Both the position numbers and the translations under genes were made by a program. A model generated the notes under the pieces. It had not been told where the DNA came from. It ran no database searches and saw only the letters and a program-made list of their open reading frames with translations. From NCBI GenBank assembly GCA_000091205.1, contig AP006484.2: a stretch of DNA of 64,000 nucleotides. One strand, 5' to 3'. This stretch comes from Cyanidioschyzon merolae (Eukaryota). Below, in pieces: positions 3,782-43,619 of this stretch. Position 1 is the first letter of the stretch; the number at the start of each line of letters is the position of its first letter.

Positions 3782-5983
3782 ATGGCTGAGCGGCAGCGTT
3801 GGTGTCTCCAGCGACGGCACCTGTGTCTCGTTTTACGTCCAGAAGCCGGACAACGCTTACGCGAATACCTGGAGCACCCAGACGTTGTTCCAGACTGGAA
3901 CGACGTTGAGTTTGTGGCCGAGCACTCGGATACCGACGTTCCGAGAGCAAACGCTCGAGCAAAGGCTCCCAACGGTGCACGAGACAGCGTAGCGGCGGTC
4001 CCAGAAGCACTGAAAGCGTTATCGTTAACAGACGACGTTGAAGGCCCCGTGGATCCGATCACGCTCGGCGTTTTGCGTGCTCCGTATACCACCCCATGTG
4101 GCCATGTGTATTCAGCGCTGGCGATTGTGCGACACCTGCTCGTAACGTTCGAACGAGCCCGCCCAAGGGGCGTCGAAGACAACACTTGTCAGGTTGGAGA
4201 CGCGCTGCAGTTACTCGCACGGTGCCCCGTATGCACCGACTGGTTCTCTTTTGATGATCTTCGTCCCTATGTTTCCTGGCACAGTCCGACACCGCTAACC
4301 CTGCATTCCCGCATCCGAATGCGTCTGTTGTGCCGCCCTCGGGGTTGTGCGTCCCGTATCATGCTACCTCGAGACTGGATCGACACAACAGAGGCCAAAC
4401 TGTTGTGGTCGGTCGGCGCCAGCACCAAGGCTTCGGAGAAACAGCACGCGCCTGCAGCCATAGCGGATCCCGACCGTACTCAGTGGCATACTGACCAAAC
4501 GCAGTCTACGACAATCAAAGCGTTAGCAGATACGTTTTGCCAGCGTATGATGACTACACCGGTAGCGGAGGACGGAGACGAGCAGCTACTTCCCTCGAGG
4601 AAAAACGGGCGCTTCTATCGGGTCTTGCTCGGGGAACCTGATTTTGTAGAGGAGCTCTTCGTCAGCCGGGAAGCGGAGTTGCAACAGCATCTAATGGAAG
4701 ATGAAACGATGGAGCTGGCGCACACGCTGGTGATGCATCGCGAGCGCGCTCGCAGAGCGACCGTGAAGCGAATAACCCAGCAGATAGAGACCGCTTCATG
4801 GTCGAAGCAGGAACCCTTCGAACCTTTCCTGGCAAACGAGATCGCTCCGTCGCAGTCGAAACGCTTACCGGCTGAAGTGGCCGCTCGGGCAACCGTTGAG
4901 GACCCGCTGGACCTTCCACAGCGGCAAGCGATGCCTCCGGCACGCACTGACGCTTGCCCTGCACCCGAGAAAGCGTCGATTGCCGTAGAGTACGTCGGAC
5001 TGTACCAGATTGCAGATGGTCGACAAGTTTACATGCATCCGCAAAACTATCGAGCACTGCTCCAACAGTACGGATCGGTGGAAAAGCTTCCGCTTTGGAT
5101 CCAGGGTAGCCTTCTCAGCTGCTATGAATGTCGCACCGAAGAGAAGAAGGCGCGCGCCTGGAGAGGCCGCAGCGCCCATGCAAGTTTCCCGAGAGATCCA
5201 GAGGCATCCAATTGTCGTCAGTTTCACTTACCCGTACCGCTACCGCCGGGCTGTGTGTACTTTGTATGCAAACTGGCATTCGGAGATACGGAAACACCGC
5301 GATGTCGCCGCTATCGTCAGCGAGGAGGTGGAAACGTTCATCCGTCGCACGCATCAGGCGCTGTGCAGCAGCCGCCAGCATTTGCTAGCCGAGAAACCGG
5401 TTCAGAAAACCCTTTTAGCACTTCAAGCGCGCATCGTTCGGTGCCTATGTCGAGACAGACGAAGGCACACCGCAACCGACCTGTGCCCAAACCACAAAAA
5501 GAGGTATCTCGTGGAGCGGAACATGTTCAAACCCCAAGAGAGCGACAGCGCGGGCAACCGCGTCTACGCAGCTCAGAACCGTCGCTGCGGGAAGTCTTCG
5601 AACAAGAGCGTCAGCATATCATCGAAGCGCACGGTGGTGCGCAATTATTCTTCCGTGATCCAAGTCGGGAAGCACTGGATCACACTCGACCCTTTTCGCG
5701 AGCAGTTTCTCATCAGCATCCACCGCCGGCTAGCGAGCGGCACGAAATTGCAGAGCGCGCTTCTACCTGGCCTGCGCTGAGCTCGACAATGCTGCCTGCA
5801 GTGGAGCAGGCACCACAGTCTACCGGGGAGCAAATCCAAGCATCTAATGTTTCCTACGCCCGCATTGCGCAAGTGCGGGGAGGATACTACCCCACCCTGC
5901 GCGACTTGTATGGTCATGCGGAATATGTGCGACCCGCAGCAACATCTGCATCCGAGAGCAAAGATAACCACAAGCCGAACTAG
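3782..5983 (+). CDS. RNF10: RNF10-like RING finger protein (733 aa) with a degenerate RING in which zinc site I is lost
   Basis: Single 733-aa ORF. Block VVPDWNDVEFV matches the RNF10 motif VNWDFVEQV. DPITLGVLRAPYTTPCGHVYSALAIVRHLL...CPVCTDWF aligns to human RNF10 [29 protein letters not shown]...CPICYSSV. GLYQIADGRQVYMHPQNYRALLQQYGSVEKLP aligns to RNF10 [29 protein letters not shown]. The RNF10 sequence is from memory. Confidence 0.6.
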   Translation: MAERQRWCLQRRHLCLVLRPEAGQRLREYLEHPDVVPDWNDVEFVAEHSDTDVPRANARAKAPNGARDSVAAVPEALKALSLTDDVEGPVDPITLGVLRAPYTTPCGHVYSALAIVRHLLVTFERARPRGVEDNTCQVGDALQLLARCPVCTDWFSFDDLRPYVSWHSPTPLTLHSRIRMRLLCRPRGCASRIMLPRDWIDTTEAKLLWSVGASTKASEKQHAPAAIADPDRTQWHTDQTQSTTIKALADTFCQRMMTTPVAEDGDEQLLPSRKNGRFYRVLLGEPDFVEELFVSREAELQQHLMEDETMELAHTLVMHRERARRATVKRITQQIETASWSKQEPFEPFLANEIAPSQSKRLPAEVAARATVEDPLDLPQRQAMPPARTDACPAPEKASIAVEYVGLYQIADGRQVYMHPQNYRALLQQYGSVEKLPLWIQGSLLSCYECRTEEKKARAWRGRSAHASFPRDPEASNCRQFHLPVPLPPGCVYFVCKLAFGDTETPRCRRYRQRGGGNVHPSHASGAVQQPPAFASRETGSENPFSTSSAHRSVPMSRQTKAHRNRPVPKPQKEVSRGAEHVQTPRERQRGQPRLRSSEPSLREVFEQERQHIIEAHGGAQLFFRDPSREALDHTRPFSRAVSHQHPPPASERHEIAERASTWPALSSTMLPAVEQAPQSTGEQIQASNVSYARIAQVRGGYYPTLRDLYGHAEYVRPAATSASESKDNHKPN

Positions 5984-14689: not shown

Positions 14690-15440
14690 AGAAAAAGGCT
14701 CGAGGCCAACGCTTTCCGACCTGTTCACAAGTTCGTGTCGAAAGCTCTCAGAGGATTTCACGATACGAAGTTATAGATTCCGTTCGAGACAACAATCCCT
14801 CTCTGTTTCCAGTCCTTGACGGATCTGTACTGAACAGCAGCAGCAGCAGCTCCATATCTGACACGCAAAATGCTTCCAGCAGCTGCCGTCCCTTCGGTGT
14901 TCATGAAAAATCGCTGCAGACACTAGTCATTGGCACGATCGTTTCCAGTGGATTGCATGGCAGAGCTTTCTGTAAAGTGGGCGTGGATGGATCGAATTTT
15001 CTCGACTTGCTCTCCATCTTGGGTTTTTTTCGAGAGCCTGTTTCAAGCCGGATCAATACCGCGTTCCATAAACCCTCTATAGAATAGAACAGCATGCGTT
15101 TAGGCGTGCAGCGGATAGCATTCTTGCCGGGATATCGCCCAGGAGATGCCCGTGATCCTACTGGACAAAACCAGACCGGTAAAGGGAAGCTTGCATCGTG
15201 CGAAGCCTTCTGTACCCGTCAAGGGTATGCATCAAGCGATGAGGCAAGCGTTCACTTGCCACAGAGCCGATTGTGGACGTAGACATACGGGAACACCTGA
15301 TCATATTCAAACGCGATCACTGCGACGAGTCCACCGAGGCAGGACACAAAACTGATGAGCATGGGAAACGAAAGGAGAATCGCAACTTTTGCTCGAGCAT
15401 GACCAGCGTGAAAAGCATCCAGAAGCGCAGCAATTGGGAC
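14690..15440 (-). repeat. dispersed ~750-bp repeat family, copy B (same orientation as copy A)
   Basis: ttctgtacccgtcaagggtatgcatcaagcgatgaggcaagcgttcac aligns with the rc of copy C 44250-44300. gacgagtccaccgaggcag..tcgcaactttt aligns with the rc of the copy C start. cgacctgttcacaagttcgtg matches the rc of catgagcttgtgaacaagtc. Track ORFs 15094..15282, 15146..15355 and 15273..15482 are frame-overlapping artefacts of this nucleotide conservation. Confidence 0.5.
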
Positions 15441-15981
15441 TTTAAATTTGCCATCAACATCGTTCTGCTGCTGACAATGTAGCTGGAGTGGCAAAAGAAA
15501 CGGAAGTATTGAAAATTGGAAATGACATAGGAGAAAAGGAAGCTGTCGCGGAAAAACCCCGCAAAGGCTGATTTCGATGACACTCGGAAGACACCACAAT
15601 TTGGGTGCATACGCCCGAGTTGACCTGTAGGACCCGCACCTTTCTCGCGTGGCATGGATGCAACCTGCATCAAAATGAGCAACGTGAAATTCGCCCTCGG
15701 AACGTGGGTGGATGCCCACATGCACCTGTTCCGCGCGCTGTGGAATGCTGGACGAAGGCAGCATCGGCAATGCAGTATCGTTTCGTAGCTGCGCCTCGAA
15801 ACCGTACAATCTATTCCATGGATGCAGAATGCTTTATGTCCGAGTGTTCTGAGAATCAGTTCCAGCGTCGGGGCTCTTCCAACAGATACCATCCCCGCTG
15901 CAGAGCGGCTCCAGCTGCTGTATGGGCGCACGTTGCGGGCTGCAGCCGGCATGTCGCTCTTGAACCCCGTCGCGGATATGC

Positions 15982-18129
15982 TCACTGGGGTACAGACACC
16001 AAGTCGGGCGGTTTGACAGGCAAATCGCCAGCTGCTGGCTCCGATTCGCCCTCCGGACGCCAGTCATGCTTCGTATAGACCTCCTCAAGGAGCGTTCTGC
16101 AGGGAATATTTGCCTGCAGTCGCATACAAGTCAAGAACGCTCCGCTCAAACGACGATGGAGGGAATAGGCCTCACGCGGAGGCGGACACAATCGATGCTG
16201 CAACATAACCTGCCCGAAACGTGCCGCCCGCACTGCAATATTACTAGAGGCAAATTCGTAACTCTTGGCAAAGGCAGCAGAGAAGGGCTCTCCAACCACG
16301 AATGCGGCCTCACAATGGGCGTCCAGCATAAGCCTGGACTCTTCTCCGGTGAGAAATCCAAGCTGCTGAGACCACTCAAGGATGCCGGCGCGGTCACGAT
16401 TCGCACAGGCCATCACGAGGTGCAAGTACGCGTCGACGAACGCTTTCGGATAGGAACGCGCTGCACCAAAGTCCAAAAGGTGAAGCGTATCTGATTCGAT
16501 TTCGTAGAGGAAATTGCTGAAATTGGGATCCGTTTGCATGAATCTTTTCTCAAATAGCTCATGCAAAGTAAGGCGAAGCATGCGCACCGCTAGTTTGTTT
16601 CTCTGTGCCGCAGGCACGCCGAGGCTAACGAGTCGATCAAGCGGCTCGCCGTCTACCCATTCAGTGGTAAGGACGTTCCTTGTCGAGAGCGACGCAAGTA
16701 CTCTCGGTATGTGCACGTGGCCCTGGTCGAATCCCTGAAAGAGCGCAGCAAAGCGTACTTGATTAGCTGCTTCAAGCTCATAGTCGCATTCGCAGAGCAA
16801 CTCCTCACGCGCTACGCGAATAGCCTCGTCGAGGTAGAGACCTCTGGGGATCAAATTCGTGTAAGTAAGAAGACGCTTCAGATTCTTCAGGTCCGACTCT
16901 ATTGAAGCTGCAACTCCGGGGTACTGGACTTTGACGGCAATGGGTCGCTCATGATTCTGCTCTCTAACGGAAGCACGATGTACCTGGCCGATGCTTGCCG
17001 CTGCAACCGGTTCAAAATTGAAGGAGTGAACGCGCTGTTGCCAGTCGGGTCCCCATTCTTGCCGCAAAACTCGCTCCAGCTGACGTCGCGGCATGAAATC
17101 TGCACCCTGACGGGCCCGTTCCAGTGCTTGCAACAGAATTGGAGGCACGGTTCGCTCATCCTGCATGGAGAGCATCTGTCCCAGTTTGAGGGCGGCGCCC
17201 CGCATACGGCAGAGTGTTCGAGCTATGCGGTCGGCATTCTCCGGAGACAGGTATCGCTCCAGTCCAGAGCGTTCTTTGGTAGGAGCTGCACTCAGCAGGG
17301 AGCTCTTGGCTGCGTTCCACACAATGCCGAGCGCTAAGTTTCCGAACCCGAACATCCGTTCCACAGTCGTTGCTGGGACGCGACGCGCTTCTCCAACCGA
17401 GCGTCTCGGGGCCGAATTTCTCACGTCGCGCTCGGTGAATGCATTTGTTGTTTGCTCCTCCTCCTGGCCGACACGATGATGCACAGTCTGTACAGCAGGG
17501 TCTGGTGTGGTATCGTAGGAGCTGCCTCTGCGTGATCGCAGCTCGGGTCCAACATCATTCTCACTTATCGTCGATGCATTTGCTTCTCTCGCCAGTGGTG
17601 GCGGGCGACTGCTATGCTCCAAGTTGGCAGGTGCCGCGTTTTCGTTGCTAGGAGTCACCGCATCCCCTGTGTTGTAAGGTCTCCCAGTGACCAGGGTTCC
17701 TGGCAATGCACTCGATTCTCGTCCCGTTGCTGCCACGTTCGCGTACTGTGCAGGCTGCTGCAAGTTTCGAACGACTTCCGAAGCAGCTGCATCCGCTTCC
17801 CTCGCCGTGACAGCGGCCTCCTGTAGTGTACTTGTGCGCTGCGTTCGTGCTCCAGCAGTTGCAAGCGAACCTTTTGGTTGCTGTATTGCTTGCTTCCCCG
17901 AAACAGCAAGTACGACCTCAGTTGACCAGTCTCTTACTCGGCGAGCGAGCCCATGCTGCATCAGAGCTAAGCTTCCTCCTACAGGTGCTGCATTCGAGAC
18001 AGCAACTCCGACTTGCGGTATGCTTTCCGCTCGGAACGCCAACCAGACCGAGCGCACACCTTGAGCGATTATCGCCCAATCGGCTAAACGAAAAAGCGTG
18101 CTTTGATCCGGAGCCACGGGTACCTTCAT
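15982..18129 (-). CDS. COQ8: ABC1/ADCK atypical kinase, COQ8 (ADCK3/4) orthologue, with ~330-aa low-complexity N-terminal extension
   Basis: ARTLCRMRGAALKLGQMLSMQD, ADFMPRRQLERVL, AAASIGQVH, IAVKVQYPGVAASIESDLKNL, ECDYELEAANQ, FMQTDPNFSNFLY, LLDFGA, HRLCPPPREAYSLHRRLSGAFLTCMRLQANIPCR. These are colinear with the COQ8 motifs LCTVRGAALKVGQMLSIQD ... FMQTDPNWANFLY ... LLDFGA ... [24 protein letters not shown]. Confidence 0.85.
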   Translation of the reverse strand: MKVPVAPDQSTLFRLADWAIIAQGVRSVWLAFRAESIPQVGVAVSNAAPVGGSLALMQHGLARRVRDWSTEVVLAVSGKQAIQQPKGSLATAGARTQRTSTLQEAAVTAREADAAASEVVRNLQQPAQYANVAATGRESSALPGTLVTGRPYNTGDAVTPSNENAAPANLEHSSRPPPLAREANASTISENDVGPELRSRRGSSYDTTPDPAVQTVHHRVGQEEEQTTNAFTERDVRNSAPRRSVGEARRVPATTVERMFGFGNLALGIVWNAAKSSLLSAAPTKERSGLERYLSPENADRIARTLCRMRGAALKLGQMLSMQDERTVPPILLQALERARQGADFMPRRQLERVLRQEWGPDWQQRVHSFNFEPVAAASIGQVHRASVREQNHERPIAVKVQYPGVAASIESDLKNLKRLLTYTNLIPRGLYLDEAIRVAREELLCECDYELEAANQVRFAALFQGFDQGHVHIPRVLASLSTRNVLTTEWVDGEPLDRLVSLGVPAAQRNKLAVRMLRLTLHELFEKRFMQTDPNFSNFLYEIESDTLHLLDFGAARSYPKAFVDAYLHLVMACANRDRAGILEWSQQLGFLTGEESRLMLDAHCEAAFVVGEPFSAAFAKSYEFASSNIAVRAARFGQVMLQHRLCPPPREAYSLHRRLSGAFLTCMRLQANIPCRTLLEEVYTKHDWRPEGESEPAAGDLPVKPPDLVSVPQ

Positions 18130-24267: not shown

Positions 24268-24535
24268 GCATGTATGAACGTTGCATATACGTGAAAGAGA
24301 CAAATTGTTGGACGGGTGTGCCTGTGACCGCGAGGCAGGCCTTTGCGAGCAAAAAGCGAATAAAGGATAGCGTCGAATAGGCTGCGGAAGCAACGCGGCC
24401 GTATCGCGAACATGCTTCACGGTATCGCAGTCATGGAATGCACAGCATACAATCTACGCAGCGGCGTACCACGGATCAAAGATCGAATTCTCACTCAACT
24501 TGTCCCACGCATGCGGTTCTTATTCACCAATGCCA

Positions 24536-25994
24536 AAAAATGGAACTTGTGAAGGTCACCATTAGCCAAGTACAACCGTTCCCACTTTCTATAGACGAAA
24601 TTCCAGCCTCACTGGATACCTGATCGCAGCATACCAGTCCCGTGATTCGGACGGGAATCCAATGCCTTCTCTCCCGGCAATTGACTTTCGCATCGCATGT
24701 CGCTAGCCTTCCAGCGCACTGCCTGCACACACGGAGTACTGAACGGCTCTTTTCGATACTCGCTCAACACAGCGACGCTGGACGCTCCGCAGGCACAAGA
24801 CGTTTCCCGATGCTGATCGAGGCGCTCGAGTCCGCTGCATCGCGTGCTTGCGTGCTTTGTTCTTGCCGGTGGATTCACAGCCAGGCAAGCCGCTCGCCTT
24901 CGATCGTCTCGCCATGTGATGATCAACCAGCGTACCGAGCGCCAGCTCGTGTATCTGGCTCTGTTTCTGCACGCTTCCTCTTCACGTGTAGTTGCGAGCC
25001 CCAGTGCCTGTGATGCGTGTACGCCGTCCAGAACGCTTCGCTGGGAATCACACAGAATCGCTTCCTGTTCTCGATAAAGTGCCCAGGGCGTCGAGACCGA
25101 TCCCGAAGGCGTCCTTCCACCTGTCGCGATGCCTGCTGGCGTCCACCAAGCCCGACGCCAGACGAGACCGAGTAATGGCGACGCTGAGCCGCCCCATCAT
25201 GTCTCCGCTCAGGTCTCTGGCTTCGTCCTGTCCCACTGCTTGGCCGCTCTTGTGTTCGGGGCATCGACGCTGTCGATGAGCAGTGCAGAAGCGTATGAGA
25301 TGAAGAAGCCGCATCGTTTGCCCGACGGAGGATGGTGTTTCATACAATTCTATCGACTTGGCGATTTGTAGGCGACCGCACGCGTGACCTGTCGCGGGGT
25401 CCGCTGTTGTCGCTGGTCATGTTCGATTCTTCTTCACGAGCCGCAGTCTTGGCAGGCATCGGGTACCCTTGTACAGTTCTGCAATGCAGTCCGAACGAGG
25501 TCTCATCGCGTGAGACAAGGGCTCGTCGCTCCTGCTACAAGCTGTTGCGTTTCAGTACGAAGTGAGTCATGTTTTGTTCGGCGCGCGACACGCTCGCCCA
25601 GAAGCACGTTTTTCCGTTGGCCACTCACATCCCTTTATCACAGCTCGTATAAACGGTACGGAAACACGAGACCCTTTGGAGGCTTTGGTAGCATTTGGCA
25701 GCGTATGTGTGGAGTAGAATGGACTGAGGGGACCGACGTCGTGCAAGCAGAGTCTGATACTTTCTTTTTCGGATACATGACGTTCTGAACGAGGACTAGG
25801 AAGAGAATAGCCTATGCACCTGCCGACAGCAGAGTGAGTGACTTGACGAGACCGCGGTCCGTTTTTCGCGAGCGATCAGTAAAAGTATCGAGTCTTTTTG
25901 CAACCTTTCTCCTTGTTACAAGACGTATTCGTTTTATTGAAAGCTTTCGATGAAAATCGAACGAAAACAAGAGCGGTTTGCCGGTACTAGTGTT
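24536..25994 (+). repeat. left arm of a large inverted repeat (about 1459 bp)
   Basis: It is the reverse complement of 28314-29772. Boundaries were found by direct comparison: aaaaatggaacttgtgaaggtcacc at the outer end, and ccggtactagtgtt at the inner end against aacactagtaccgg. Track ORF translations on the two arms are identical or near-identical: 25384..25788 equals 28520..28924, and 25332..25565 equals 28743..28976. Confidence 0.85.
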
Positions 25995-28313: not shown

Positions 28314-29772
28314 AACACTAGTACCGGCAAACCGCTCTTGTTTTCGTTCGATTTTCATCGAAAGCTTTCAATAAAACGAATACGTCTTGTAACAAGGAGA
28401 AAGGTTGCAAAAAGACTCGATACTTTTACTGATCGCTCGCGAAAAACGGACCGCGGTCTCGTCAAGTCACTCACTCTGCTGTCGGCAGGTGCATAGGCTA
28501 TTCTCTTCCTAGTCCTCGTTCAGAACGTCATGTATCCGAAAAAGAAAGTATCCGACTCTGCTTGCACGACGTCGGTCCCCTCAGTCCATTCTACTCCACA
28601 CATACGCTGCCAAATGCTACCAAAGCCTCCAAAGGGTCTCGTGTTTCCGTACCGTTTATACGAGCTGTGATAAAGGGATGTGAGTGGCCAACGGAAAAAC
28701 GTGCTTCTGGGCGAGCGTGTCGCGCGCCGAACAAAACATGACTCACTTCGTACTGAAACGCAACAGCTTGTAGCAGGAGCGACGAGCCCTTGTCTCACGC
28801 GATGAGACCTCGTTCGGACTGCATTGCAGAACTGTACAAGGGTACCCGATGCCTGCCAAGACTGCGGCTCGTGAAGAAGAATCGAACATGACCAGCGACA
28901 ACAGCGGACCCCGCGACAGGTCACGCGTGCGGTCGCCTACAAATCGCCAAGTCGATAGAATTGTATGAAACACCATCCTCCGTCGGGCAAACGATGCGGC
29001 TTCTTCATCTCATACGCTTCTGCACTGCTCATCGACAGCGTCGATGCCCCGAACACAAGAGCGGCCAAGCAACGGGACAGGACGAAGCCAGAGACCTGAG
29101 CGGAGACCTGATGGGGCGGCTCGGCGTCGCCATTGCTCGGTCTCGTCTGGCGTCGGGCTTGGTGGACGCCAGCAGGCATCACGACAGGTGGAAGGACGCC
29201 TTCGGGATCGGTCTCGACGCCCTGGGCACTTTATCGAGAACAGGAACCGATTCTGTGTGATTCCCAGCGAAGCGTTCTGGACGGCGTACACGCATCACAC
29301 GCACTGGGGCTCGCAACTACACGTGAAGAGGAAGCGTGCAGAAACAGAGCCAGATACACGAGCTGGCGCTCGGTACGCTGGTTGATCATCACATGGCGAG
29401 ACGATCGAAGGCGAGCGGCTTGCCTTGCTGTGAATCCACCGGCAAGAACAAAGCACGCAAGCACGCGATGCAGCGGACTCGAGCGCCTCGATCAGCATCG
29501 GGAAACGTCTTGTGCCTGCGGAGCGTCCAGCGTCGCTGTGTTGAGCGAGTATCGAAAAGAGCCGTTCAGTACTCCGTGTGTGCAGGCAGTGCGCTGGAAG
29601 GCTAGCGACATGCGATGCGAAAGTCAATTGCCAGGAGAGAAGGCATTGGATTCCCGTCCGAATCACGGGACTGGTATGCTGCGATCAGGTATCCAGTGAG
29701 GCTGGAATTTCGTCTATAGAAAGTGGGAACGGTTGTACTTGGCTAATGGTGACCTTCACAAGTTCCATTTTT
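28314..29772 (-). repeat. right arm of the large inverted repeat (about 1459 bp), ending 44 bp upstream of the NUS1 ATG
   Basis: See left arm. A few substitutions are visible in the paired translations, for example PPHHVSAQVSGFVLSHC against PPHQVSAQVSGFVLSRC, so identity is high but not perfect. The outer edge degrades over a further ~20 bp. Confidence 0.85.
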
Positions 29773-29815
29773 CGGGACTCGTGAGATTATCCGCCAAAAG
29801 GGACTGCTGCCGCCG

Positions 29816-35941: not shown

Positions 35942-36517
35942 ATGTCTCGCATTTACCTACCAAGCATGGAAATGATAAGCCAGCACCTAGATGACGATCC
36001 ACAACTCGAGGAGCCCAAGGACGCATTTCTCCTCACATGGCCAGATGCAAGCTCGAGTGCGAAACCGACGCCGAGTCTGCCGACAGGCGCTCGAGCTCCG
36101 AAAGCTGCACGTGATCGAGAAAACGCAGAGCATGCCATTGAGGCGCCATTACCGAAGAGAAACATGCCTGTCGAGTCCCACGGAGCATGCGAAAAGCACT
36201 GGCAACAACTGACTCTGCAAGTTGAGCGGCTCCAGGCGGATCTCAACTTACTCGAGGGAAACTTTCTGTGCCTCCATCAACAGCTGAGCGGTGTGCTGGA
36301 GCGGATGGATGAACTTGCCGCTGAGAGCCAGGCGAATCCAATATGTACCCCATGGGTACCAGACCCAGTTGGGAGCCTACACCCAACTGAATTCCATCTT
36401 ACGCCGCTGCAAAGCAGCCCATCTGACAGCGGCTCTTCTGCGGATGTTGAATCCACGCTTGCTCCAGAGATGTCTGCGCACTGCAGACAACAAGATGCAG
36501 ACAACTCGTTGAATTAG
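35942..36517 (+). CDS. hypothetical small coiled-coil protein (191 aa)
   Basis: Complete ORF with a heptad-like segment QQLTLQVERLQADLNLLEGNFLCLHQQLSGVLERMDELAAE. No homology recognised. Confidence 0.25.
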   Translation: MSRIYLPSMEMISQHLDDDPQLEEPKDAFLLTWPDASSSAKPTPSLPTGARAPKAARDRENAEHAIEAPLPKRNMPVESHGACEKHWQQLTLQVERLQADLNLLEGNFLCLHQQLSGVLERMDELAAESQANPICTPWVPDPVGSLHPTEFHLTPLQSSPSDSGSSADVESTLAPEMSAHCRQQDADNSLN

Positions 36518-36680: not shown

Positions 36681-37571
36681 CTAGAGTGCAAAACGCTCAA
36701 AGGCTAACACCGAAATCCCCGGACCGATAGCTTCGCGCACTGTTCGCTGTCGACTGCGAGAGCGTTCGTCGGCAGAGTCGGTAACAAGCACTTGGTCCAG
36801 GAGACAGCGCTCAGCGATGAACGCTTCGAACTTGACACTTCTGCGCTGGGGAGGCGAAGCGTTCGCGGCACCCAATTGCCGAGGAGCGCGGAACGCTTCA
36901 TCTTCCGCAGGCATCAGGCTTTCGTAGACGGACGGCTCGATATCGGCCGCGGAAACGTACTGCGGATTCATTGCAGCGATATGCATTGCAACCTGTCGGC
37001 CGAGTGGCGACGGTGCCGAGCAAGCAACCAAAACACCAACGCGTGCGTGATTATGCAAATAGGAATATATTCGACCGTCCCGAAACGTGTCCGGTACTTG
37101 CAAACGGATGCCCCGGTGGACTGTGAGATTCTCGTCAGTCTTTGCGACCGCTTCTCGTAGCTCGTCGCGCAATGCCTCAAGCAGCTCCTGTACATTGGTT
37201 ACCGCTCCGCGCAGGAGCAGCTCTAGTCCGCGCTGACTAACACGTTGGACGACAGGCAACTGGTGCACAAAGTCCGTCTCGGAACGGATCTCTACCATGG
37301 CACCGCACCGTTGATCAGGTGCGACCTCCAGTGCAATGAGCCCACTCCTCGTGCTGCGCTGCGCTTTCTTTCGCATCACGGTCTCTGCGTAGCTTGACAA
37401 AAGCCCCAGTGCTGCGTCCAGCTTGCCGTCACACCGTTCTAATGCCTTTTTACACTCCATAACCGGGGCACCCGTCAGGTCACGAAGCTGACGGATGGAG
37501 GCTGCATTCCAGTTCGGGCTGGAGCTTAACCAGCGCCTGCCAATGTGCAGGAGAAACTGCGACCTAACCAT
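36681..37571 (-). CDS. TSFM: elongation factor Ts, mitochondrial (TSFM), 296 aa
   Basis: N-terminal presequence MVRSQFLLHIGRRWLSSS, then the EF-Ts N-terminal UBA-like motif ASIRQLRDLTGAPVMECKKALERCDGKLDAALGLL (compare IKELREKTGAGMMDCKKAL). Dimerisation-domain-like remainder. Confidence 0.8.
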   Translation of the reverse strand: MVRSQFLLHIGRRWLSSSPNWNAASIRQLRDLTGAPVMECKKALERCDGKLDAALGLLSSYAETVMRKKAQRSTRSGLIALEVAPDQRCGAMVEIRSETDFVHQLPVVQRVSQRGLELLLRGAVTNVQELLEALRDELREAVAKTDENLTVHRGIRLQVPDTFRDGRIYSYLHNHARVGVLVACSAPSPLGRQVAMHIAAMNPQYVSAADIEPSVYESLMPAEDEAFRAPRQLGAANASPPQRRSVKFEAFIAERCLLDQVLVTDSADERSRSRQRTVREAIGPGISVLAFERFAL

Positions 37572-38065
37572 GTTTCAAAAGAAACACTCCCCGAATCAGC
37601 GCCGAACTAAGAAGCGTGCTCAAGTGTGCGTGATCGAGGTTCGAAACAAACCCGGAACGCCCGCTGCGGTACAGTTCCTCGTGCAACTGCGCGCGAAACG
37701 CTTCTCCCGGATGTGCGGGTTGCTTTGAACTGCGAACAACCGAGCGTAGGTTCCCGGCTTCGTTCCGGGCGATCTACGCGAACCGGTTTCCGTGACTCTA
37801 CCGGGCACCTCTTTTCGAGACACGAAACAGCTATCACCGGAAATAAGCGTCGACCTTTTCTAGAAAAGGGCCGGCAGTGACCCGATCTTGCGGTGGAACG
37901 GGCTCGTGAGGCGAGCGCTCTAGCGCCGTGTTCAAGCCTTCTGTCGCTGGCGGACTTGAAGCTGCAGGCGCGCTTTGTGTGGGTTCTTTGCGCAGAGCAC
38001 GTCAGCGTCAGGACGCGCTGTAGAGCTGTTTTCCATAGAAACAGTTCTAGAGTCAAACCGCAGCG
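37572..38065. promoter_or_regulatory. divergent intergenic region between TSFM (minus) and POLD2 (plus)
   Basis: Lies between divergent start codons. Track ORF 37607..38101 (minus) there is Arg/Ser-rich and not protein-like. Confidence 0.2.
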
Positions 38066-39460
38066 TTGCCGCGGCGACAGCTCTGGGGTAACTGGGGGCA
38101 CCGCGGTTCGTGCGCTCCCGTGACGTCTGGCGACTGCGTCCTATTTAGGGAAAAAGTACACGAATCAGAACAACCAAACGCCATGACAGGCACAAGGCCT
38201 TGTTCTGAAGAAAACGGCGCAGTCTCCAACGCTTCCTCCGAGACATACGCGAACCTTGATGGGCCATGGGGCTTTGCGATGCCATCGGGGACCCTCGAAC
38301 AGGCTAACTACATGCAACAGTACAGCCAGCTGTACTTTTGTCGTCTGGCAGAAATGCGCAACTTTTACAGCACCTATACAGATATCACGCGAGTTGCGAT
38401 CTCGCAGCTGAACCCCGTTCAGACGCAATGGGTTGTGGGCATCATTTTCAAGCAGATGCCCTTGAAACCCTCGATCCTCAAGAGCTATGCCGACGACATC
38501 ATGCTCACCGTCCCTGAACTGCGTCTCCTGAACTACACATCTGGTGATGATCGCGTATACGTTGAGGACGAGACTGGTCGTATCGAGTGCGTGTTCCACC
38601 CCGAAGACCGCAAACATGATGTCGTCACGGGAATGGTCATTGCGCTGCAAGGGCTGGTAGGCGCGGACGGGCTCTTTCGCGTGAACGAGATCCGACTGCC
38701 GATGCATCCCGCACCGATACCACTGCCTTGTTCGGGACAATCCGCAAAACAGTATATCTGCTTCCTGTCTGGGGTTGATGTTCGCACGCCGGCGGCACAG
38801 CTCTTCCTCGACTACGTTACAGGCTGCCTTGGCGCCGATACCGTCCAACTCGGGGCATGCATGCGAGTGATCGTCGCTGGAAACCTTCGAGGCGAACGAT
38901 CCTTACTCGACCTTTTCCTGAAGACGCTTGCCGAGCACGTGCCCGTGGACCTTATGCCCGGCGAGGAGGACCCCGTGCATGCGGCCTTCCCGCAACAGCC
39001 ATGGCATCGACTCCTGCTTCCCCAGAGCGCCTCGCAGGACGATGCACAGAATCGACTCGTTCGCTGCAGTAATCCGCATGCATTTCAAATCAATGGTTGT
39101 CTCTTCCTGGGAACATCCGGACAGAATGTGAAGAATTTCTGCCGCTTCTCGCGAGTTCGCAACGAACTCGAGGCGCTCCAACGACTTCTCGAATGTGGAC
39201 ATCTCGCACCGACTTGTCCGGATACCATGGCCTGCGTCCCGCGAGGCGACCACGACCCCCTCGTTATCCGCGAGGTTCCGCACGTGCTTTTCACTGGCAA
39301 CGCGGATACCTTCAGGTACCAACAGCGTGTGTTCGGGGCAGCTCGAAACGCAGGGACGGCAGCGCCTGTGACGTTGCTGACGGTTCCACGTTTTGATGCG
39401 ACCGGCACTGCAGTGCTGCTCGCACTGCCTGAATTAACGCCGACGACTTTACAGTTTTAA
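38066..39460 (+). CDS. POLD2: DNA polymerase delta subunit 2 (POLD2, B-subunit); alternative start at ATG 38183
   Basis: [115 protein letters not shown]. These are colinear with the POLD2 motifs [106 protein letters not shown]. Confidence 0.85.
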   Translation: [464 protein letters not shown]

Positions 39461-39471
39461 ATACCCTGTAC

Positions 39472-41217
39472 ATGGTTGCCGAATCGAACGGCTTGTACCT
39501 AGGTCTTGATCTGAGCACGCAATCGCTTGATGCGGTGGTTATCGACCTCGATGACGCCCTGGAAAGCGCCTTCGAAGCGAGTGTGAACTTTGAGACAGAC
39601 CTACCACACTACGGCACGAAGAGCGGGTTTATCTACGACCCGGAGAGCAAGCGTGCGGTGGCACCGACGCTCATGTTTGCCGAGGCGCTCGAACTTGTGC
39701 TCGAAAGACTACGGAGTGCTAAGTGCCCGTTCGAACGCATTAGAGCAGTTTCGGTGTCTGCGCAGCAGCACGGCTCTGTGTATTGGCAGAGGCCTCCGCA
39801 CCTGCCGGATACCGAGAAAGACAGCCAGAAGTCGCTGGTCGCCTGTCTGCAAGAGCCAACGACTGCCTTTGCGGTGCCGTTCAGCCCTATATGGGCGGAC
39901 GCCTCGACAACTGCAGCTTGTAGAGCGATTGAGGCTGCGTATCCTGGTGGAGCGAGGCAACTCGCCCGCGACACCGGTTCCCGTGCCTATGAGCGATACA
40001 CTGCCGCGCAGGTGGTGAACCTCGCGCTCCATCAACCAGCGGCATATCGGCAGACGCAGCGGATTCAAGTTATATCGGCGGGTATGGTATCGATATTGTG
40101 CGGCAACTGGTGTGCCGAGGATGTCGCTGATGCGAGCGGAACGCTGTGGCTGCAGCTAGGTGCGCTGCGGCCGCGCTGGGCTCCCAAAGCGCTCGCTGCA
40201 ACCGAGCAGGCTGCGGGACTCGAGTCCGGCACCTTGCATGGAAAGTTAGCAGAATCACCAGTGCTCTCGTTCACAGCCGCTGGACCAATCGCTCCGTACT
40301 TCTGTCATCGTTTCGGTTTCCGCCCCGAGTGCTTGGTCGTGACTGGAACTGGTGACAATCCCTCATCGGCAGCAGGCCTGGCTATGCGACTGGGTGATGT
40401 GTGTATATCGCTGGGTACTTCGGATACGGCTTTCGGGCGCACGAGCTCATGCGAACCCCAGTTGTTTGGTCACGTTTTTCGCAGCTCACTTGATCCGCTC
40501 GCGTACATGCCGATTCTCGTGTTCTCGAACGGTTCGCTCACCCGTGAGCGCATTCGGGGCCCAGATCGCTCCTGGGAGGACTTTGACGCCTCGCTGGAAC
40601 GCACACCGGCGGGAAACCAGGGCCTCCTAGCACTGCTTACATTTGTGGATGAGATTCTTCCTCGCTTACCTGCCGGTCTGATGTACTTTGCCCAGATCGA
40701 AACGGAATCGACCAGCTCGGCACTCGCGGAGCTGAAACTGGCCCTGCTTCGCCCCGAGGACGTTGCATCACACGATGCCGTTGTTCGTGCTGTGGTAGAG
40801 CAGCGAGCGCTTGCAATCCGCTACTATGGAGAGCGCATCGGGTTACCTTTCCCACCGCAACGTGTTCTGCTCACAGGTGGTGCTTCTCAGTCGCGGGGCA
40901 TCCGAAAAGTGATTGCGGATGTGCTGGGTGCCCCTGTTTATGTTTTGGAACGTGGCAAAGCATCCTTGGATGCGCACGTGACCCCATGGAACACGGCTGC
41001 TCGCGGGGCTGCCCTGCGTGCCGCTTATGTGCAACGCGGTGAACAACAGGAGTTTGCTGACTGGGCTTCAAGCATTCATGCAGTGCGGTATCGCCGGGTT
41101 GCGGAGCCCAATCCCGATGCGTTCCAACTCTACACGAGTGTTATGTTGCCTGCATATGCTCGGTTTGAGGCACTGGTGGATGCGCAGTCTCGAACTGGGC
41201 CAGTTTCCTCCGCGTGA
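39472..41217 (+). CDS. XYLB: D-xylulose kinase (FGGY carbohydrate kinase family), 581 aa
   Basis: The N-terminus LYLGLDLSTQSLDAVVIDLD..SVNFETDLPHYGTKSGF..APTLMFAEALELVLERLRSAKCPFERIRAVSVSAQQHGSVYWQ matches human XYLB [81 protein letters not shown] C-terminal domain with GGASQS. Confidence 0.85.
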   Translation: MVAESNGLYLGLDLSTQSLDAVVIDLDDALESAFEASVNFETDLPHYGTKSGFIYDPESKRAVAPTLMFAEALELVLERLRSAKCPFERIRAVSVSAQQHGSVYWQRPPHLPDTEKDSQKSLVACLQEPTTAFAVPFSPIWADASTTAACRAIEAAYPGGARQLARDTGSRAYERYTAAQVVNLALHQPAAYRQTQRIQVISAGMVSILCGNWCAEDVADASGTLWLQLGALRPRWAPKALAATEQAAGLESGTLHGKLAESPVLSFTAAGPIAPYFCHRFGFRPECLVVTGTGDNPSSAAGLAMRLGDVCISLGTSDTAFGRTSSCEPQLFGHVFRSSLDPLAYMPILVFSNGSLTRERIRGPDRSWEDFDASLERTPAGNQGLLALLTFVDEILPRLPAGLMYFAQIETESTSSALAELKLALLRPEDVASHDAVVRAVVEQRALAIRYYGERIGLPFPPQRVLLTGGASQSRGIRKVIADVLGAPVYVLERGKASLDAHVTPWNTAARGAALRAAYVQRGEQQEFADWASSIHAVRYRRVAEPNPDAFQLYTSVMLPAYARFEALVDAQSRTGPVSSA

Positions 41218-41720
41218 ACAGTGTTGTGATTCAGGTGGAGGGCGACGAGCTCGGCTGCGACGGCGTCAGTTCGGGATACTGCACAACACCGCAGACTTAG
41301 TGAAGGGAAGAGATTGCGAGTTTACCTCGGCGATGACTCTCGTCCTGTGCGAGTTTGTCTCCGAGTTCCGGCGGACACGCTGTGTTCCAACTTTTGTTCA
41401 GAGCGCAGCGTTTCCGCGCTCGTTAGAAACTAGGTGCTGAATACCTTGTCTTATGCAAAGCGCGTGCAGAGATTCGGAGACCAGCACCGAGCTATGGAAA
41501 GTCTCACTTGCGTGCATGCGGGCGGGCATTCGAGCGGCAACGTCAGCCGAGCGCTACTTCAACCGAGCGCTTCCAGAAAACCTGGAATCCGTGCGACCAT
41601 ACAGTCTTATGTGACCCTGTTTCAGATAGCGCTTTTTCGCTCAGACGAGAACGTGGATCAGCTGACTGCGTCCCGTTGCAATAAAGCGTTGAACACGAAT
41701 AATGACGTCACGAGTTAACT

Positions 41721-41745
41721 AGCCAGCCAGCCAGTCAGTCAGTCA

Positions 41746-41801
<56 letters not shown>

Positions 41802-41802
41802 A
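41721..41802. repeat. (GCCA)n tetranucleotide microsatellite, about 20 units with GTCA variants
   Basis: agccagccagccagtcagtcagtcagccagtcagccagcc(agcc)n aactgg is read directly. It lies in the convergent 3' region between XYLB and the minus-strand membrane protein gene. Confidence 0.9.
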
Positions 41803-41840
41803 CTGGACCAGTGCCGCAGCCATCTCCTGCTTCGAAAAGG

Positions 41841-43619
41841 CTATGCCTTTTTGACTGTTGACTCGCGCGCGAGTGCAGCGCTTCCCCGCGGATCCAGCAG
41901 AACGACATCATTGACGGTGACCGCGTGGCTGAGCACCGGGCTTCCATGCATAGCTTCCGCGTCCGTGGAAACGGGTGCCCCAGAGGCTCCACCGGCGCCG
42001 CCAAAGCGCATTGCAGCTGCTCGCCACAGACTCTGATAGAGATTTGCATAGGCCGCTCTTTCACTCTGAGTTGAGAAGAAACAAATCGTAGCTGAAGCCA
42101 TCGTCCAAGTGAAATAGCGCCATAAGCTGGCTTCTTCGGACGGTGTGCAGAGCGCCCTGTCCCAGGAAATGGCGTAAAAGTCGTAGGCCAGCCACGTGGA
42201 TGCTACCAATCGCAAAAAACTGATCATCACATAATGCTTCAAGCTCGAATCAGGGCGTGGCGAGTGCATATAACTAGCCGCGCTTATCAGCACGGACTCA
42301 CGGAGCAAAAGGCGAATGCACTGTGTGATCCACAACAACGAATACGTCGCCGCAATCATGCATTGAACGAACCCGAAGCGCAAAACGCTCGCCAATCTCG
42401 CGATGTGCTGCGTATCACCACGAAGCAGCAACTGCGACAGAAACAGAACGAATCCAAGCAAACCAAACACCAGGTTTCCCATCGCTTCCACCGCACTGGT
42501 CGTTGCCTGCTGCGCATATCGGGTGACGATTGCTCCAGCGAGGCTCACGGTCAGAAGCAACGCCAGGAACTGCAGGACGCCAACCATCAGTTGCGAAGTG
42601 AGCTGCCACCAGCTCGCGTCCCGGTTCAACCCTCGCCCGTGCAACATCGGAGGGTCCGCGGGCGCAGGCAACTGTGCGCCCAGGTGCGCGTCTCGTGTGT
42701 CGGAGGCGGTCGCTTCTAGCGCGCTGTTGATTGCAGTCGACCCGCCGTGGCCCGAAAACTCGTTACGACAATGCTGTAAAAGTGACTCGAGCGCACGCTT
42801 CTCTTCGGCGCATTCCTGTCGGGCGACGTTGACTGCCGCCTTGCAGGATGCATCGTTCTCTGTTACCCGCCATTGATCACGGGGACCGGCCGCAGCGAAA
42901 AGCGCTTGGCGCAGATCACCTGCTTGCTTTAGCAAGCTATCTCTTTCGCGGGCTACGCGACCCAGTTGGTCTTGTAGCATCAACTCTCGGTCGCGGAGCG
43001 CCTTATACTCGAATCGAAGTTCCGAAACGTTCGCAACATCGGGGTCGAAAAAAAGATTCTTGATCACAATCGATCCAACGCGGGTGTCCTTTACCAGGGA
43101 AATGATAGGCCTCTCTGGACGCTCTGTGAGGAACGCGTGCCAGTCGCCGAAACCGTAGTCCAACTCGTGTCGTCGCTCAAGCTCCGCACGTTGCTGCTCG
43201 GGCGGAAGTTTCGCCTTCTGCAAGCGAGACAGCGCTCCACGTTGTCCTTGTTCCAAGCGAGCTGAGACTGTTTCAGCCTCACTCGCTATGCCGAAAACCG
43301 TCTTGGGTAGCGTGTCGGAGCCAGTGGCACCGCGTTCACCGACGCTCGCTGGTGAGCTCCCAGTTGCTGGCAGCAACACCACAAGCAAAAGCAACAATAG
43401 GAAAGAGGTCAACGTCAAGCAGTGCCAAGATGCGGGTGTGAAAATATGTCGCGTGCGCCCAGGCTGCACCATTGGTGGGAGGCAAGACCCCGAGAACCCG
43501 CTCCTGCTGAAGAGAATGAGCTCAACAATCCAAAATCGAGTTGCGCGAAGAATTCGGCTCACGACGTCGATGATAGGCGAACAAATGGGGGCGTTGGCGG
43601 CGGCGTACCGTCCGTCCAA
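41841..43619 (-). CDS. hypothetical membrane protein: N-terminal signal/anchor, ~300-aa coiled-coil region, five C-terminal transmembrane helices (592 aa; ATG at 43478 MVQPGRTR may be the real start)
   Basis: LTLTSFLLLLLLVVLLPATG signal-like. Coiled-coil FEYKALRDRELMLQDQLGRVARERDSLLKQAGDLRQALF. TM helices MVGVLQFLALLLTVSLAGAIV, LVFGLLGFVLFLSQLLL, FGFVQCMIAATYSLLWI, VMISFLRLVASTWLAYDFYAI, YFTWTMASATICFF. No family recognised. Confidence 0.5.
   Translation of the reverse strand: MDGRYAAANAPICSPIIDVVSRILRATRFWIVELILFSRSGFSGSCLPPMVQPGRTRHIFTPASWHCLTLTSFLLLLLLVVLLPATGSSPASVGERGATGSDTLPKTVFGIASEAETVSARLEQGQRGALSRLQKAKLPPEQQRAELERRHELDYGFGDWHAFLTERPERPIISLVKDTRVGSIVIKNLFFDPDVANVSELRFEYKALRDRELMLQDQLGRVARERDSLLKQAGDLRQALFAAAGPRDQWRVTENDASCKAAVNVARQECAEEKRALESLLQHCRNEFSGHGGSTAINSALEATASDTRDAHLGAQLPAPADPPMLHGRGLNRDASWWQLTSQLMVGVLQFLALLLTVSLAGAIVTRYAQQATTSAVEAMGNLVFGLLGFVLFLSQLLLRGDTQHIARLASVLRFGFVQCMIAATYSLLWITQCIRLLLRESVLISAASYMHSPRPDSSLKHYVMISFLRLVASTWLAYDFYAISWDRALCTPSEEASLWRYFTWTMASATICFFSTQSERAAYANLYQSLWRAAAMRFGGAGGASGAPVSTDAEAMHGSPVLSHAVTVNDVVLLDPRGSAALARESTVKKA

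Follow-up and report, generated by a model that had tools for sequence, protein, structure and literature searches.

POLD2 and XYLB of Cyanidioschyzon merolae lie 11 nucleotides apart, are regulated separately and probably form overlapping or abutting transcription units

[quoted passage not shown] Both genes are part of a stretch of 64,000 nt, which is termed the window here and to which all C. merolae coordinates refer. In published array data the POLD2 and XYLB mRNAs are regulated separately, and this argues against an obligate dicistronic transcript. The pair probably represents two separately regulated transcription units that overlap or directly abut, and the XYLB promoter would then reside in the 3' part of the POLD2 coding sequence (CDS).

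The separate regulation of the two genes is evident from Data Set S1 of Miyagishima et al. 2019 (PMC6606799), an Agilent array sampled every 4 h under 12 h light/12 h dark, with one probe per gene, three technical replicates and two biological replicates. From 0 to 24 h the POLD2 signal ran through 245, 275, 458, 1173, 1372, 765 and 377 in replicate 1 and through 434, 615, 1183, 2690, 2856, 1323 and 602 in replicate 2, and the corresponding values for XYLB were 3811, 6295, 5893, 4661, 2167, 2265 and 3437 or 5184, 7372, 6029, 4653, 2861, 3191 and 5019, respectively (PMC6606799). POLD2 follows an S-phase pattern with its peak at 12-16 h and XYLB a day-phase pattern with its peak at 4-8 h, such that the two profiles are roughly anti-phased, and they differ reproducibly in both replicates. 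The XYLB/POLD2 ratio is 1.0-1.6 at 16 h versus 12-23 at 0-4 h, a 12- to 14-fold change, as read from a single 60-mer probe per gene, whose position is unlocated and whose intensities are not strictly comparable across probes. A single mRNA comprising both open reading frames (ORFs) would cause the two probes to co-vary. Since the profiles differ, most XYLB RNA must lack the POLD2 probe region, and XYLB must therefore possess its own start site downstream of that probe. The two replicates of the published array thus reveal separate mRNAs with independent abundance. Read-through dicistronic RNA may be present, above all at 16 h, where the two signals approach each other, but it cannot account for the bulk of the XYLB mRNA. 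In nickel-stress transcriptomics POLD2 is listed as up-regulated and XYLB is not listed, an observation from selective tables to which we gave no weight.

At the junction, the POLD2 stop codon TAA (39458-39460), the spacer (39461-39471) and the XYLB start codon ATG (39472-39474) follow each other on the plus strand, in the order ACT TTA CAG TTT TAA ataccctgtac ATG GTT GCC. Sequence and ORF map agree on this arrangement, which an initial annotation, made from the DNA letters only, had pointed out. The public annotation of CMB052C (POLD2; this identifier is used in PMC12112623 and in PMC6606799, Data Set S1) and CMB053C (XYLB) has ends identical to those of the initial gene models. That both proteins are complete, as the initial annotation also held, is confirmed by alignments with solved homologues, which reach the ends of POLD2 and XYLB. 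The POLD2 product matches the Pfam families PF18018 (E = 5.8e-29) and PF04042 (E = 7.7e-32) and is a POLD2/Pol31 protein with an N-terminal OB-fold and a calcineurin-like phosphoesterase domain, complete in comparison with characterised members: the alignment with human POLD2 (E = 5.7e-52) extends to residue 419 of 425, and residues 99-483 of the 487 residues of yeast Pol31 align with residues 79-423. The XYLB product matches PF00370 and PF02782, and residues 12-536 of the 538 residues of human XYLB (structure 4bc2) align with its residues 9-576 (E = 1e-89). It is an FGGY kinase/xylulokinase with both FGGY domains and an N-terminal GxDxST motif, and its substrate specificity is predicted from homology. 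The phosphate-binding motif LGLDLSTQ occupies residues 10-17. An upstream extension of the XYLB ORF is impossible, because an in-frame TGA (39430-39432) is located 13 codons 5' of the ATG with no ATG between them. The next in-frame methionine is residue 68, and a start there would remove the conserved LYLGLDLSTQ.

The spacing of the pair is exceptional. The nine same-strand gaps among the 21 confident ORFs of the window measure 362, 2548, 415, 5548, 1005, 1918, 11, 2805 and 2468 nt, and the published mean intergenic length of C. merolae is 1889.8 bp (PMC9812998). POLD2-XYLB is a strong outlier in this series. The initial annotation had put all other same-strand pairs at 400 bp or more, which is nearly right; the smallest other gap is 362 nt. 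Its premise that such neighbours lack room for a terminator plus a promoter holds for the 11 nt in C. merolae, as it does for the 10 and 11 nt found in two relatives. The tight spacing is not part of a genome-wide compaction, given the published mean, the other gaps of 362-5548 nt in the window and a spacer of 380 nt in Cyanidium.

Another ORF with a short upstream distance, 211 codons long (15317..15952, minus strand), begins 29 nt past the stop codon of an ABC1/aarF kinase gene (15982-18129, BAM78864.1) on the same strand. Of its 13 near-identical environmental cluster members, 12 retain the full 211 aa. The ORF was not counted as a second tight pair, as it has no NCBI annotation in strain 10D, a low coding score and no Pfam match. 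It is either an unannotated gene, which would make a second tight tandem pair, or a chance ORF.

For an evolutionary comparison, relatives of XYLB were retrieved together with their genomic context. They stem from two uncultured lineages (L081 and L082), from Cyanidium caldarium (L083) and from a high-GC relative (L098). In L081, whose XYLB and POLD2 are 69% and 58% identical to the C. merolae proteins, the spacer comprises 10 nt (TGA agaaccgctc ATG), and in L082 (69% and 60% identity) it comprises 11 nt (TAA agagattgtgc ATG). The spacer extends to 380 nt in Cyanidium (54% and 46%) and to 116 nt in L098 (50% and 45%), and in Galdieria sulphuraria XYLB (about 39% identity) has different neighbours and is non-syntenic. 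L081 and L082 are 73-75% identical to each other. The gene order EF-Ts(-)/POLD2(+)/XYLB(+)/unknown(-)/methyltransferase(+) is common to L081, L082 and Cyanidium; the L098 contig is too short to include the flanks. The N-terminal XYLB motif LYLGLDLSTQSLDAV is the same in C. merolae, L081, L082 and Cyanidium and reads LYLGIDLSTQ in L098.

The length of the spacer is kept in C. merolae, L081 and L082 (11, 10 and 11 nt) and its letters are not: the tight spacing outlasted a protein divergence of 30-40% and a randomisation of the spacer sequence. Judged from these comparisons the tight junction is old: the ancestor that C. merolae, L081 and L082 share had already lost the longer spacer, and the short one has been kept since then. 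The initial annotation had suggested comparing synteny and spacing in related genomes and had listed a very recent local compaction or deletion as one explanation. The latter is refuted by spacers of 10-11 nt in three lineages that share no more than 58-73% POLD2 identity. General compaction pressure is not the explanation either, because the compact Cyanidium, which has the shortest mean intergenic length (319.7 bp) among three Cyanidiales genera compared (PMC9812998), keeps an ordinary spacer at this site. Furthermore, no conserved read-through or frameshift fusion of the two proteins is possible, since 11, 10 and 11 nt differ modulo 3; in C. merolae the XYLB frame also contains the TGA at 39430-39432. 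Within the 380-nt spacer of Cyanidium, GTCACACGGAACGCGC is duplicated in tandem (5866-5905 of JANCYW010000011.1), some 100-135 nt before the XYLB ATG; the two copies could be a pair of regulatory sites in an un-compacted XYLB promoter.

The POLD2 stop codon coincides with a potential signal for 3'-end formation. In C. merolae UAAA serves as poly(A) signal at 93% of primary sites, and cleavage occurs 3-35 nt downstream with a mean of 17 nt, as established by long-read sequencing (PMC8831791). The stop codon TAA of POLD2 and the following A form this tetranucleotide, which is the sole such motif on its strand for 2.2 kb: within 38000-41800 the plus strand contains two TAAA only, at 39458 and 41682. 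In the coding sequence of the window sense-strand TAAA is depleted (0.42/kb vs 1.51/kb overall), and the stop codon forms TAAA in one of 21 window ORFs, namely POLD2. L082 likewise carries a TAAA at the POLD2 stop codon and a second one 22 nt further, and in Cyanidium a TAAA is found 100 nt past the POLD2 stop, within the 380-nt spacer. From the TAAA positions in C. merolae, L081 and L082, POLD2 3'-end formation is predicted to fall inside XYLB in these lineages. The per-gene poly(A) supplement of PMC8831791 contains no entry for CMB052C or CMB053C. A second coincidence of stop codon and poly(A) signal motif in this cluster occurs in L081, where the XYLB stop codon TAA and the next A form a TAAA (7753-7756 of L081).

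In the arrangement that we consider probable, POLD2 mRNA would start in the 611-nt divergent region upstream of the gene, and its 3' end would be formed via its own stop-codon UAAA, with cleavage most likely 3-35 nt further on, at or just inside the XYLB start codon. XYLB would be transcribed independently by RNA polymerase II from a promoter within the 3' part of the POLD2 CDS. The XYLB start site is expected between the POLD2 array probe and 39471, its most likely location being the 73 nt without ATG that precede the start codon, and the XYLB ATG would be reached by ordinary ribosome scanning. The arrangement would have arisen through loss of roughly 100-400 nt of spacer in the ancestor of Cyanidioschyzon and its closest relatives and would then have been kept. 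Among the options put forward in the initial annotation, XYLB transcription from inside the POLD2 CDS is thus the best supported one, namely by the separate profiles, the 12- to 14-fold change in ratio and the stop-codon UAAA; the start site itself stays a prediction.

Upstream of the XYLB start codon, ATG is missing from 73 nt in C. merolae, from 171 nt in L081 and from 304 nt in L082. A randomly chosen coding position would have runs of this length with P = about 0.33, 0.10 and 0.02, respectively, which makes the run ordinary in C. merolae itself and suggestive in L081 and L082 only. The ATG-free stretches lend weak support to a leader in the last part of POLD2. In a comparison of C. merolae with L081 and L082, synonymous sites at the 5' end of XYLB showed no added conservation.

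Several points weigh against two overlapping or abutting units, in addition to the single, unlocated array probes. The log-scale correlations of POLD2 and XYLB, -0.53 and -0.62 in the two replicates, indicate that the ORFs are not co-expressed at the RNA level, but these negative values rest on 7 time points and are individually non-significant (p = 0.14-0.22); the argument is based on the profiles, not on the correlations. In L081 the POLD2 stop codon is TGA, no UAAA is nearby and the first TAAA lies 125 nt into XYLB, such that not every lineage has a signal at the stop codon. Synonymous sites at the POLD2 3' end are not additionally conserved (0.17-0.29 vs a gene mean of 0.38; three lineages) and hence give no footprint of an embedded promoter. 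C. merolae also offers no characterised endogenous promoter or start site to compare with (PMC12770821). If XYLB transcription starts upstream of 39458, the XYLB pre-mRNA itself carries the UAAA and must escape cleavage there, which is plausible for a cap-proximal signal. Finally, the XYLB start site and the use of the stop-codon UAAA with its cleavage site are what we infer from the profiles and from the position of the motif.

Alternatively, the main XYLB RNA might be a dicistronic POLD2-XYLB mRNA, from which XYLB would be translated through re-initiation 11 nt past the POLD2 stop codon or through internal entry, as the initial annotation had also proposed. A spacer held at 10-11 nt in three diverged lineages, with no conservation of its sequence, would suit such a mechanism. 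L081 has no UAAA near the POLD2 stop codon; in C. merolae, however, a UAAA is located at the stop codon itself, and the next one follows at 41682, such that any transcript reading through the former would carry both ORFs. The probe signals are nearly equal at 16 h (ratio 1.0-1.6), but they are roughly anti-phased over the whole course, and XYLB rises up to 23-fold above POLD2. Translation of a dicistron meets further obstacles. Eukaryotic re-initiation after an ORF of 425 codons is normally very inefficient. POLD2 contains 28 AUGs, 11 of them in frame, instead of the few upstream AUGs of a leaky-scanning dicistron, and leaky scanning from the POLD2 cap to the XYLB AUG is therefore implausible. 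TGGGA (UGGGA in the RNA), motif 1 of the termination upstream ribosome-binding site (TURBS), is absent from the last 150 nt of POLD2 in all five lineages, and accordingly no 18S-complementary UGGGA occurs within about 100 nt upstream of the stop/start site. The junction RNA (39352-39531) is not unusually structured upon folding (z = +0.68), and an Rfam search across 37500-42000 yielded no match at E <= 0.1; on these two grounds an internal ribosome entry site (IRES) or other RNA structure at the junction was rejected. Overall, a dicistronic transcript is disfavoured as the main route to XYLB protein, and we regard it as highly improbable. Practically negligible is the chance that the tight spacing is an artefact, due to an indel in the sequencing, to a miscalled start or stop codon or to a pseudogene. 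Nothing was found in its favour apart from JGI prokaryote-style gene callers, which sometimes vary the POLD2 start (393 or 522 aa) and thus the 5' end only. The sequencing indel that the initial annotation had named as a potential objection is not borne out: a 39-nt junction sequence was matched exactly in 15 fetched loci, which correspond to 14 distinct metagenome/Logan contigs from strains 0.4-0.9% diverged from 10D. Moreover, the ends of POLD2 and XYLB both match solved homologues, the same ORF ends with a 10-11-nt spacer recur in two diverged lineages, both genes yield array signal, and the genome is described as 100% complete in the title of the respective paper (PMC1955436).

Closer to the separate-unit arrangement is the idea that the XYLB mRNA is nearly leaderless, with a start within the 11-nt spacer past the UAAA, a 5' untranslated region (UTR) of at most 10 nt and a promoter in POLD2 coding DNA. 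The XYLB pre-mRNA would then no longer carry the POLD2 UAAA, and the retention of 10-11 nt of spacer, never fully lost, would fit. In the microsporidian Encephalitozoon cuniculi, 5' UTRs of <7 nt go along with a CCC-like motif just before the start codon (PMC2803860). The C. merolae spacer has a CCC too, but those of L081 and L082 do not, and long stretches free of ATG precede other genes in the window, which is compatible with ordinary leaders. Very short leaders are poorly read by scanning ribosomes in most eukaryotes, which also counts against this reading. We rate a nearly leaderless mRNA as unlikely. A still more elaborate proposal views the junction as a conserved regulatory device. The stop codon would double as poly(A) signal and the XYLB promoter would be wholly protein-coding, combined either with a leaderless XYLB mRNA starting in the 10-11-nt spacer, or with repression of XYLB by S-phase POLD2 transcription that runs over this promoter and/or re-initiation on a read-through dicistronic RNA. 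The spacer of 10-11 nt in three lineages, the minimum of XYLB at the POLD2 peak and the signals of about 1:1 at 16 h bear on this proposal, which we hold to be doubtful at best, slightly more so than the leaderless mRNA. If true, it would mechanistically link a replication gene and a gene of pentose metabolism.

Neighbouring genes with overlapping transcription are on record for other compact eukaryotic genomes (PMC2387174, PMC2803860). The closest parallel to the C. merolae pair is provided by the microsporidia E. cuniculi and Antonospora locustae and by nucleomorphs (Williams et al. 2005 PNAS, PMC1182411, and Corradi et al. 2008, both as cited in PMC2387174; Peyretaillade et al. 2009, PMC2803860). 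Their intergenic DNA is too short for separate signals, as in the C. merolae pair. As is predicted for that pair, mRNA 3' ends lie in the downstream gene, the upstream gene or its immediate vicinity contains the start signals, and poly(A) signals are found near or at the stop codon. However, these genomes are extremely compacted throughout and often produce multigene transcripts, whereas POLD2-XYLB is an isolated, ancient outlier in a genome with 1.9 kb of mean intergenic length; its mRNAs are regulated separately, and the tight spacing is missing in the more compact Cyanidium (380 nt). Nuclear dicistronic and polycistronic mRNAs of green algae, said to be described by Gallaher and co-workers (PNAS, 2021), are reportedly co-expressed, and their downstream ORF is reportedly translated by leaky scanning past a short, AUG-poor upstream ORF. 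They share with the C. merolae pair two conserved ORFs on one strand, a very short spacer and a unicellular algal host; the upstream ORF of C. merolae, in contrast, comprises 425 codons with 28 AUGs, and the two genes differ in their expression profiles. Termination-reinitiation at TURBS elements is known from caliciviruses and from influenza B M1/BM2. The stop and start codons are within a few nt of each other there as well, yet the C. merolae pair is cellular, has no upstream UGGGA and no conserved frame (11, 10 and 11 nt), and is regulated separately.

In Trichomonas vaginalis the UAAA poly(A) signal includes the stop codon. The same tetranucleotide is made from TAA plus A in POLD2, but POLD2 is alone in this respect among the 21 ORFs of the C. 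merolae window, so that the coincidence is not a rule, and its use at POLD2 is predicted from the motif. The yeast genes SRG1-SER3 exemplify transcriptional interference between tandem genes. As in that system, upstream transcription would run across the downstream promoter, and XYLB is lowest when POLD2 is highest, at 16 h. Unlike SER3, however, XYLB has a profile that resembles other day-phase metabolic genes on the array, e.g., CMA041C, and interference need not be invoked. Our searches found no literature on C. merolae start sites, 5' UTR lengths or overlapping or dicistronic genes, and no paper that discusses the POLD2-XYLB junction. The junction is a new example of an already known kind, a curiosity rather than a new mechanism.

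Nevertheless, an XYLB promoter confined to a short, bounded stretch of coding DNA would offer a convenient natural setting in which to delimit a minimal RNA polymerase II promoter of C. merolae. The pair would also be a clean example of DNA that serves as coding sequence, promoter and poly(A) signal at once, to be compared across five lineages with spacers of 380, 116 and 10-11 nt. There is a practical aspect too. Tags or markers are usually introduced right in front of the stop codon in C. merolae, e.g., in MRE11-HA (PMC6606799). At CMB052C/CMB053C the usual designs, a tag before the stop codon or about 1 kb of upstream DNA as promoter, would separate XYLB from its control region or duplicate POLD2 CDS. 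The positions of the pertinent features are compiled in Table 1.

Table 1. Features of the POLD2-XYLB locus in the 64,000-nt window of C. merolae 10D chromosome 2
Feature	Position	Strand	Remarks
Divergent intergenic region, 611 nt	37572..38182		Between mitochondrial EF-Ts (CMB051C, minus strand) and POLD2; presumed site of the POLD2 promoter
POLD2 (DNA polymerase delta subunit B) CDS	38183..39460	+	CMB052C, BAM78871.1, 425 aa, ATG at 38183 (exact-sequence look-up)
Nearest ATG upstream of the XYLB start	39396..39437	+	Opens a 13-codon ORF (MRPALQCCSHCLN, then stop) in the third frame; an upstream ORF of XYLB only if the XYLB start site is further upstream
ATG-free 73 nt before the XYLB ATG	39399..39471	+	Last 62 nt of POLD2 plus spacer; candidate zone for XYLB start site and 5' leader
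POLD2 stop TAA plus next A (UAAA, poly(A) signal motif)	39458..39461	+	Use at POLD2 predicted
Spacer ataccctgtac	39461..39471	+	Identical in 14 independent contigs
Predicted POLD2 cleavage/polyadenylation zone	39461..39496	+	3-35 nt past UAAA, spans the XYLB start codon; derived from the distances in PMC8831791
XYLB (xylulokinase, FGGY family) CDS	39472..41217	+	CMB053C, BAM78872.1, 581 aa (exact-sequence look-up)
First TAAA past the XYLB stop (467 nt after it)	41682..41685	+	Presumptive XYLB poly(A) signal; only alternative for a POLD2 read-through transcript

Downstream, XYLB is followed by the convergent gene CMB054C. The first minus-strand TAAA past the CMB054C stop codon (41841) is located at 41324-41321, and that of XYLB on the opposite strand at 41682 (about 41300-41700 of the window). 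If both motifs are used, the convergent XYLB and CMB054C mRNAs are predicted to overlap in antisense by about 400 nt. A (CCAG/GCCA)n tetranucleotide microsatellite at about 41721-41800 separates the XYLB poly(A) signal from the CMB054C stop codon; its length varies among environmental strains, and several metagenome assemblies break there. One sequence that ends at this repeat (L094, Logan SRR5248875, 3539 nt) had been considered as a POLD2 plus XYLB transcript. It was rejected, being a broken genomic contig of an environmental strain (99.63% identity) that ends exactly at the start of (CCAG)n.

Elsewhere in the window, an inverted repeat consists of two arms at 24524-25994 and 28314-29784, each 1471 nt long, 99% complementary and 2319 nt apart. 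Each arm contains an ORF of 113 aa (24923..25264, minus strand; 29044..29385, plus strand) that has no Pfam match. The structure may have arisen by inverted duplication in recent times, or it may be a mobile or repeat element. Finally, an ORF of 191 aa at 35942-36517 (plus strand) has a high coding score (0.153 per codon), no exact sequence counterpart in the protein collection and no Pfam match; it may represent a differently delimited annotated neighbour, possibly CMB050C, or an unannotated gene.

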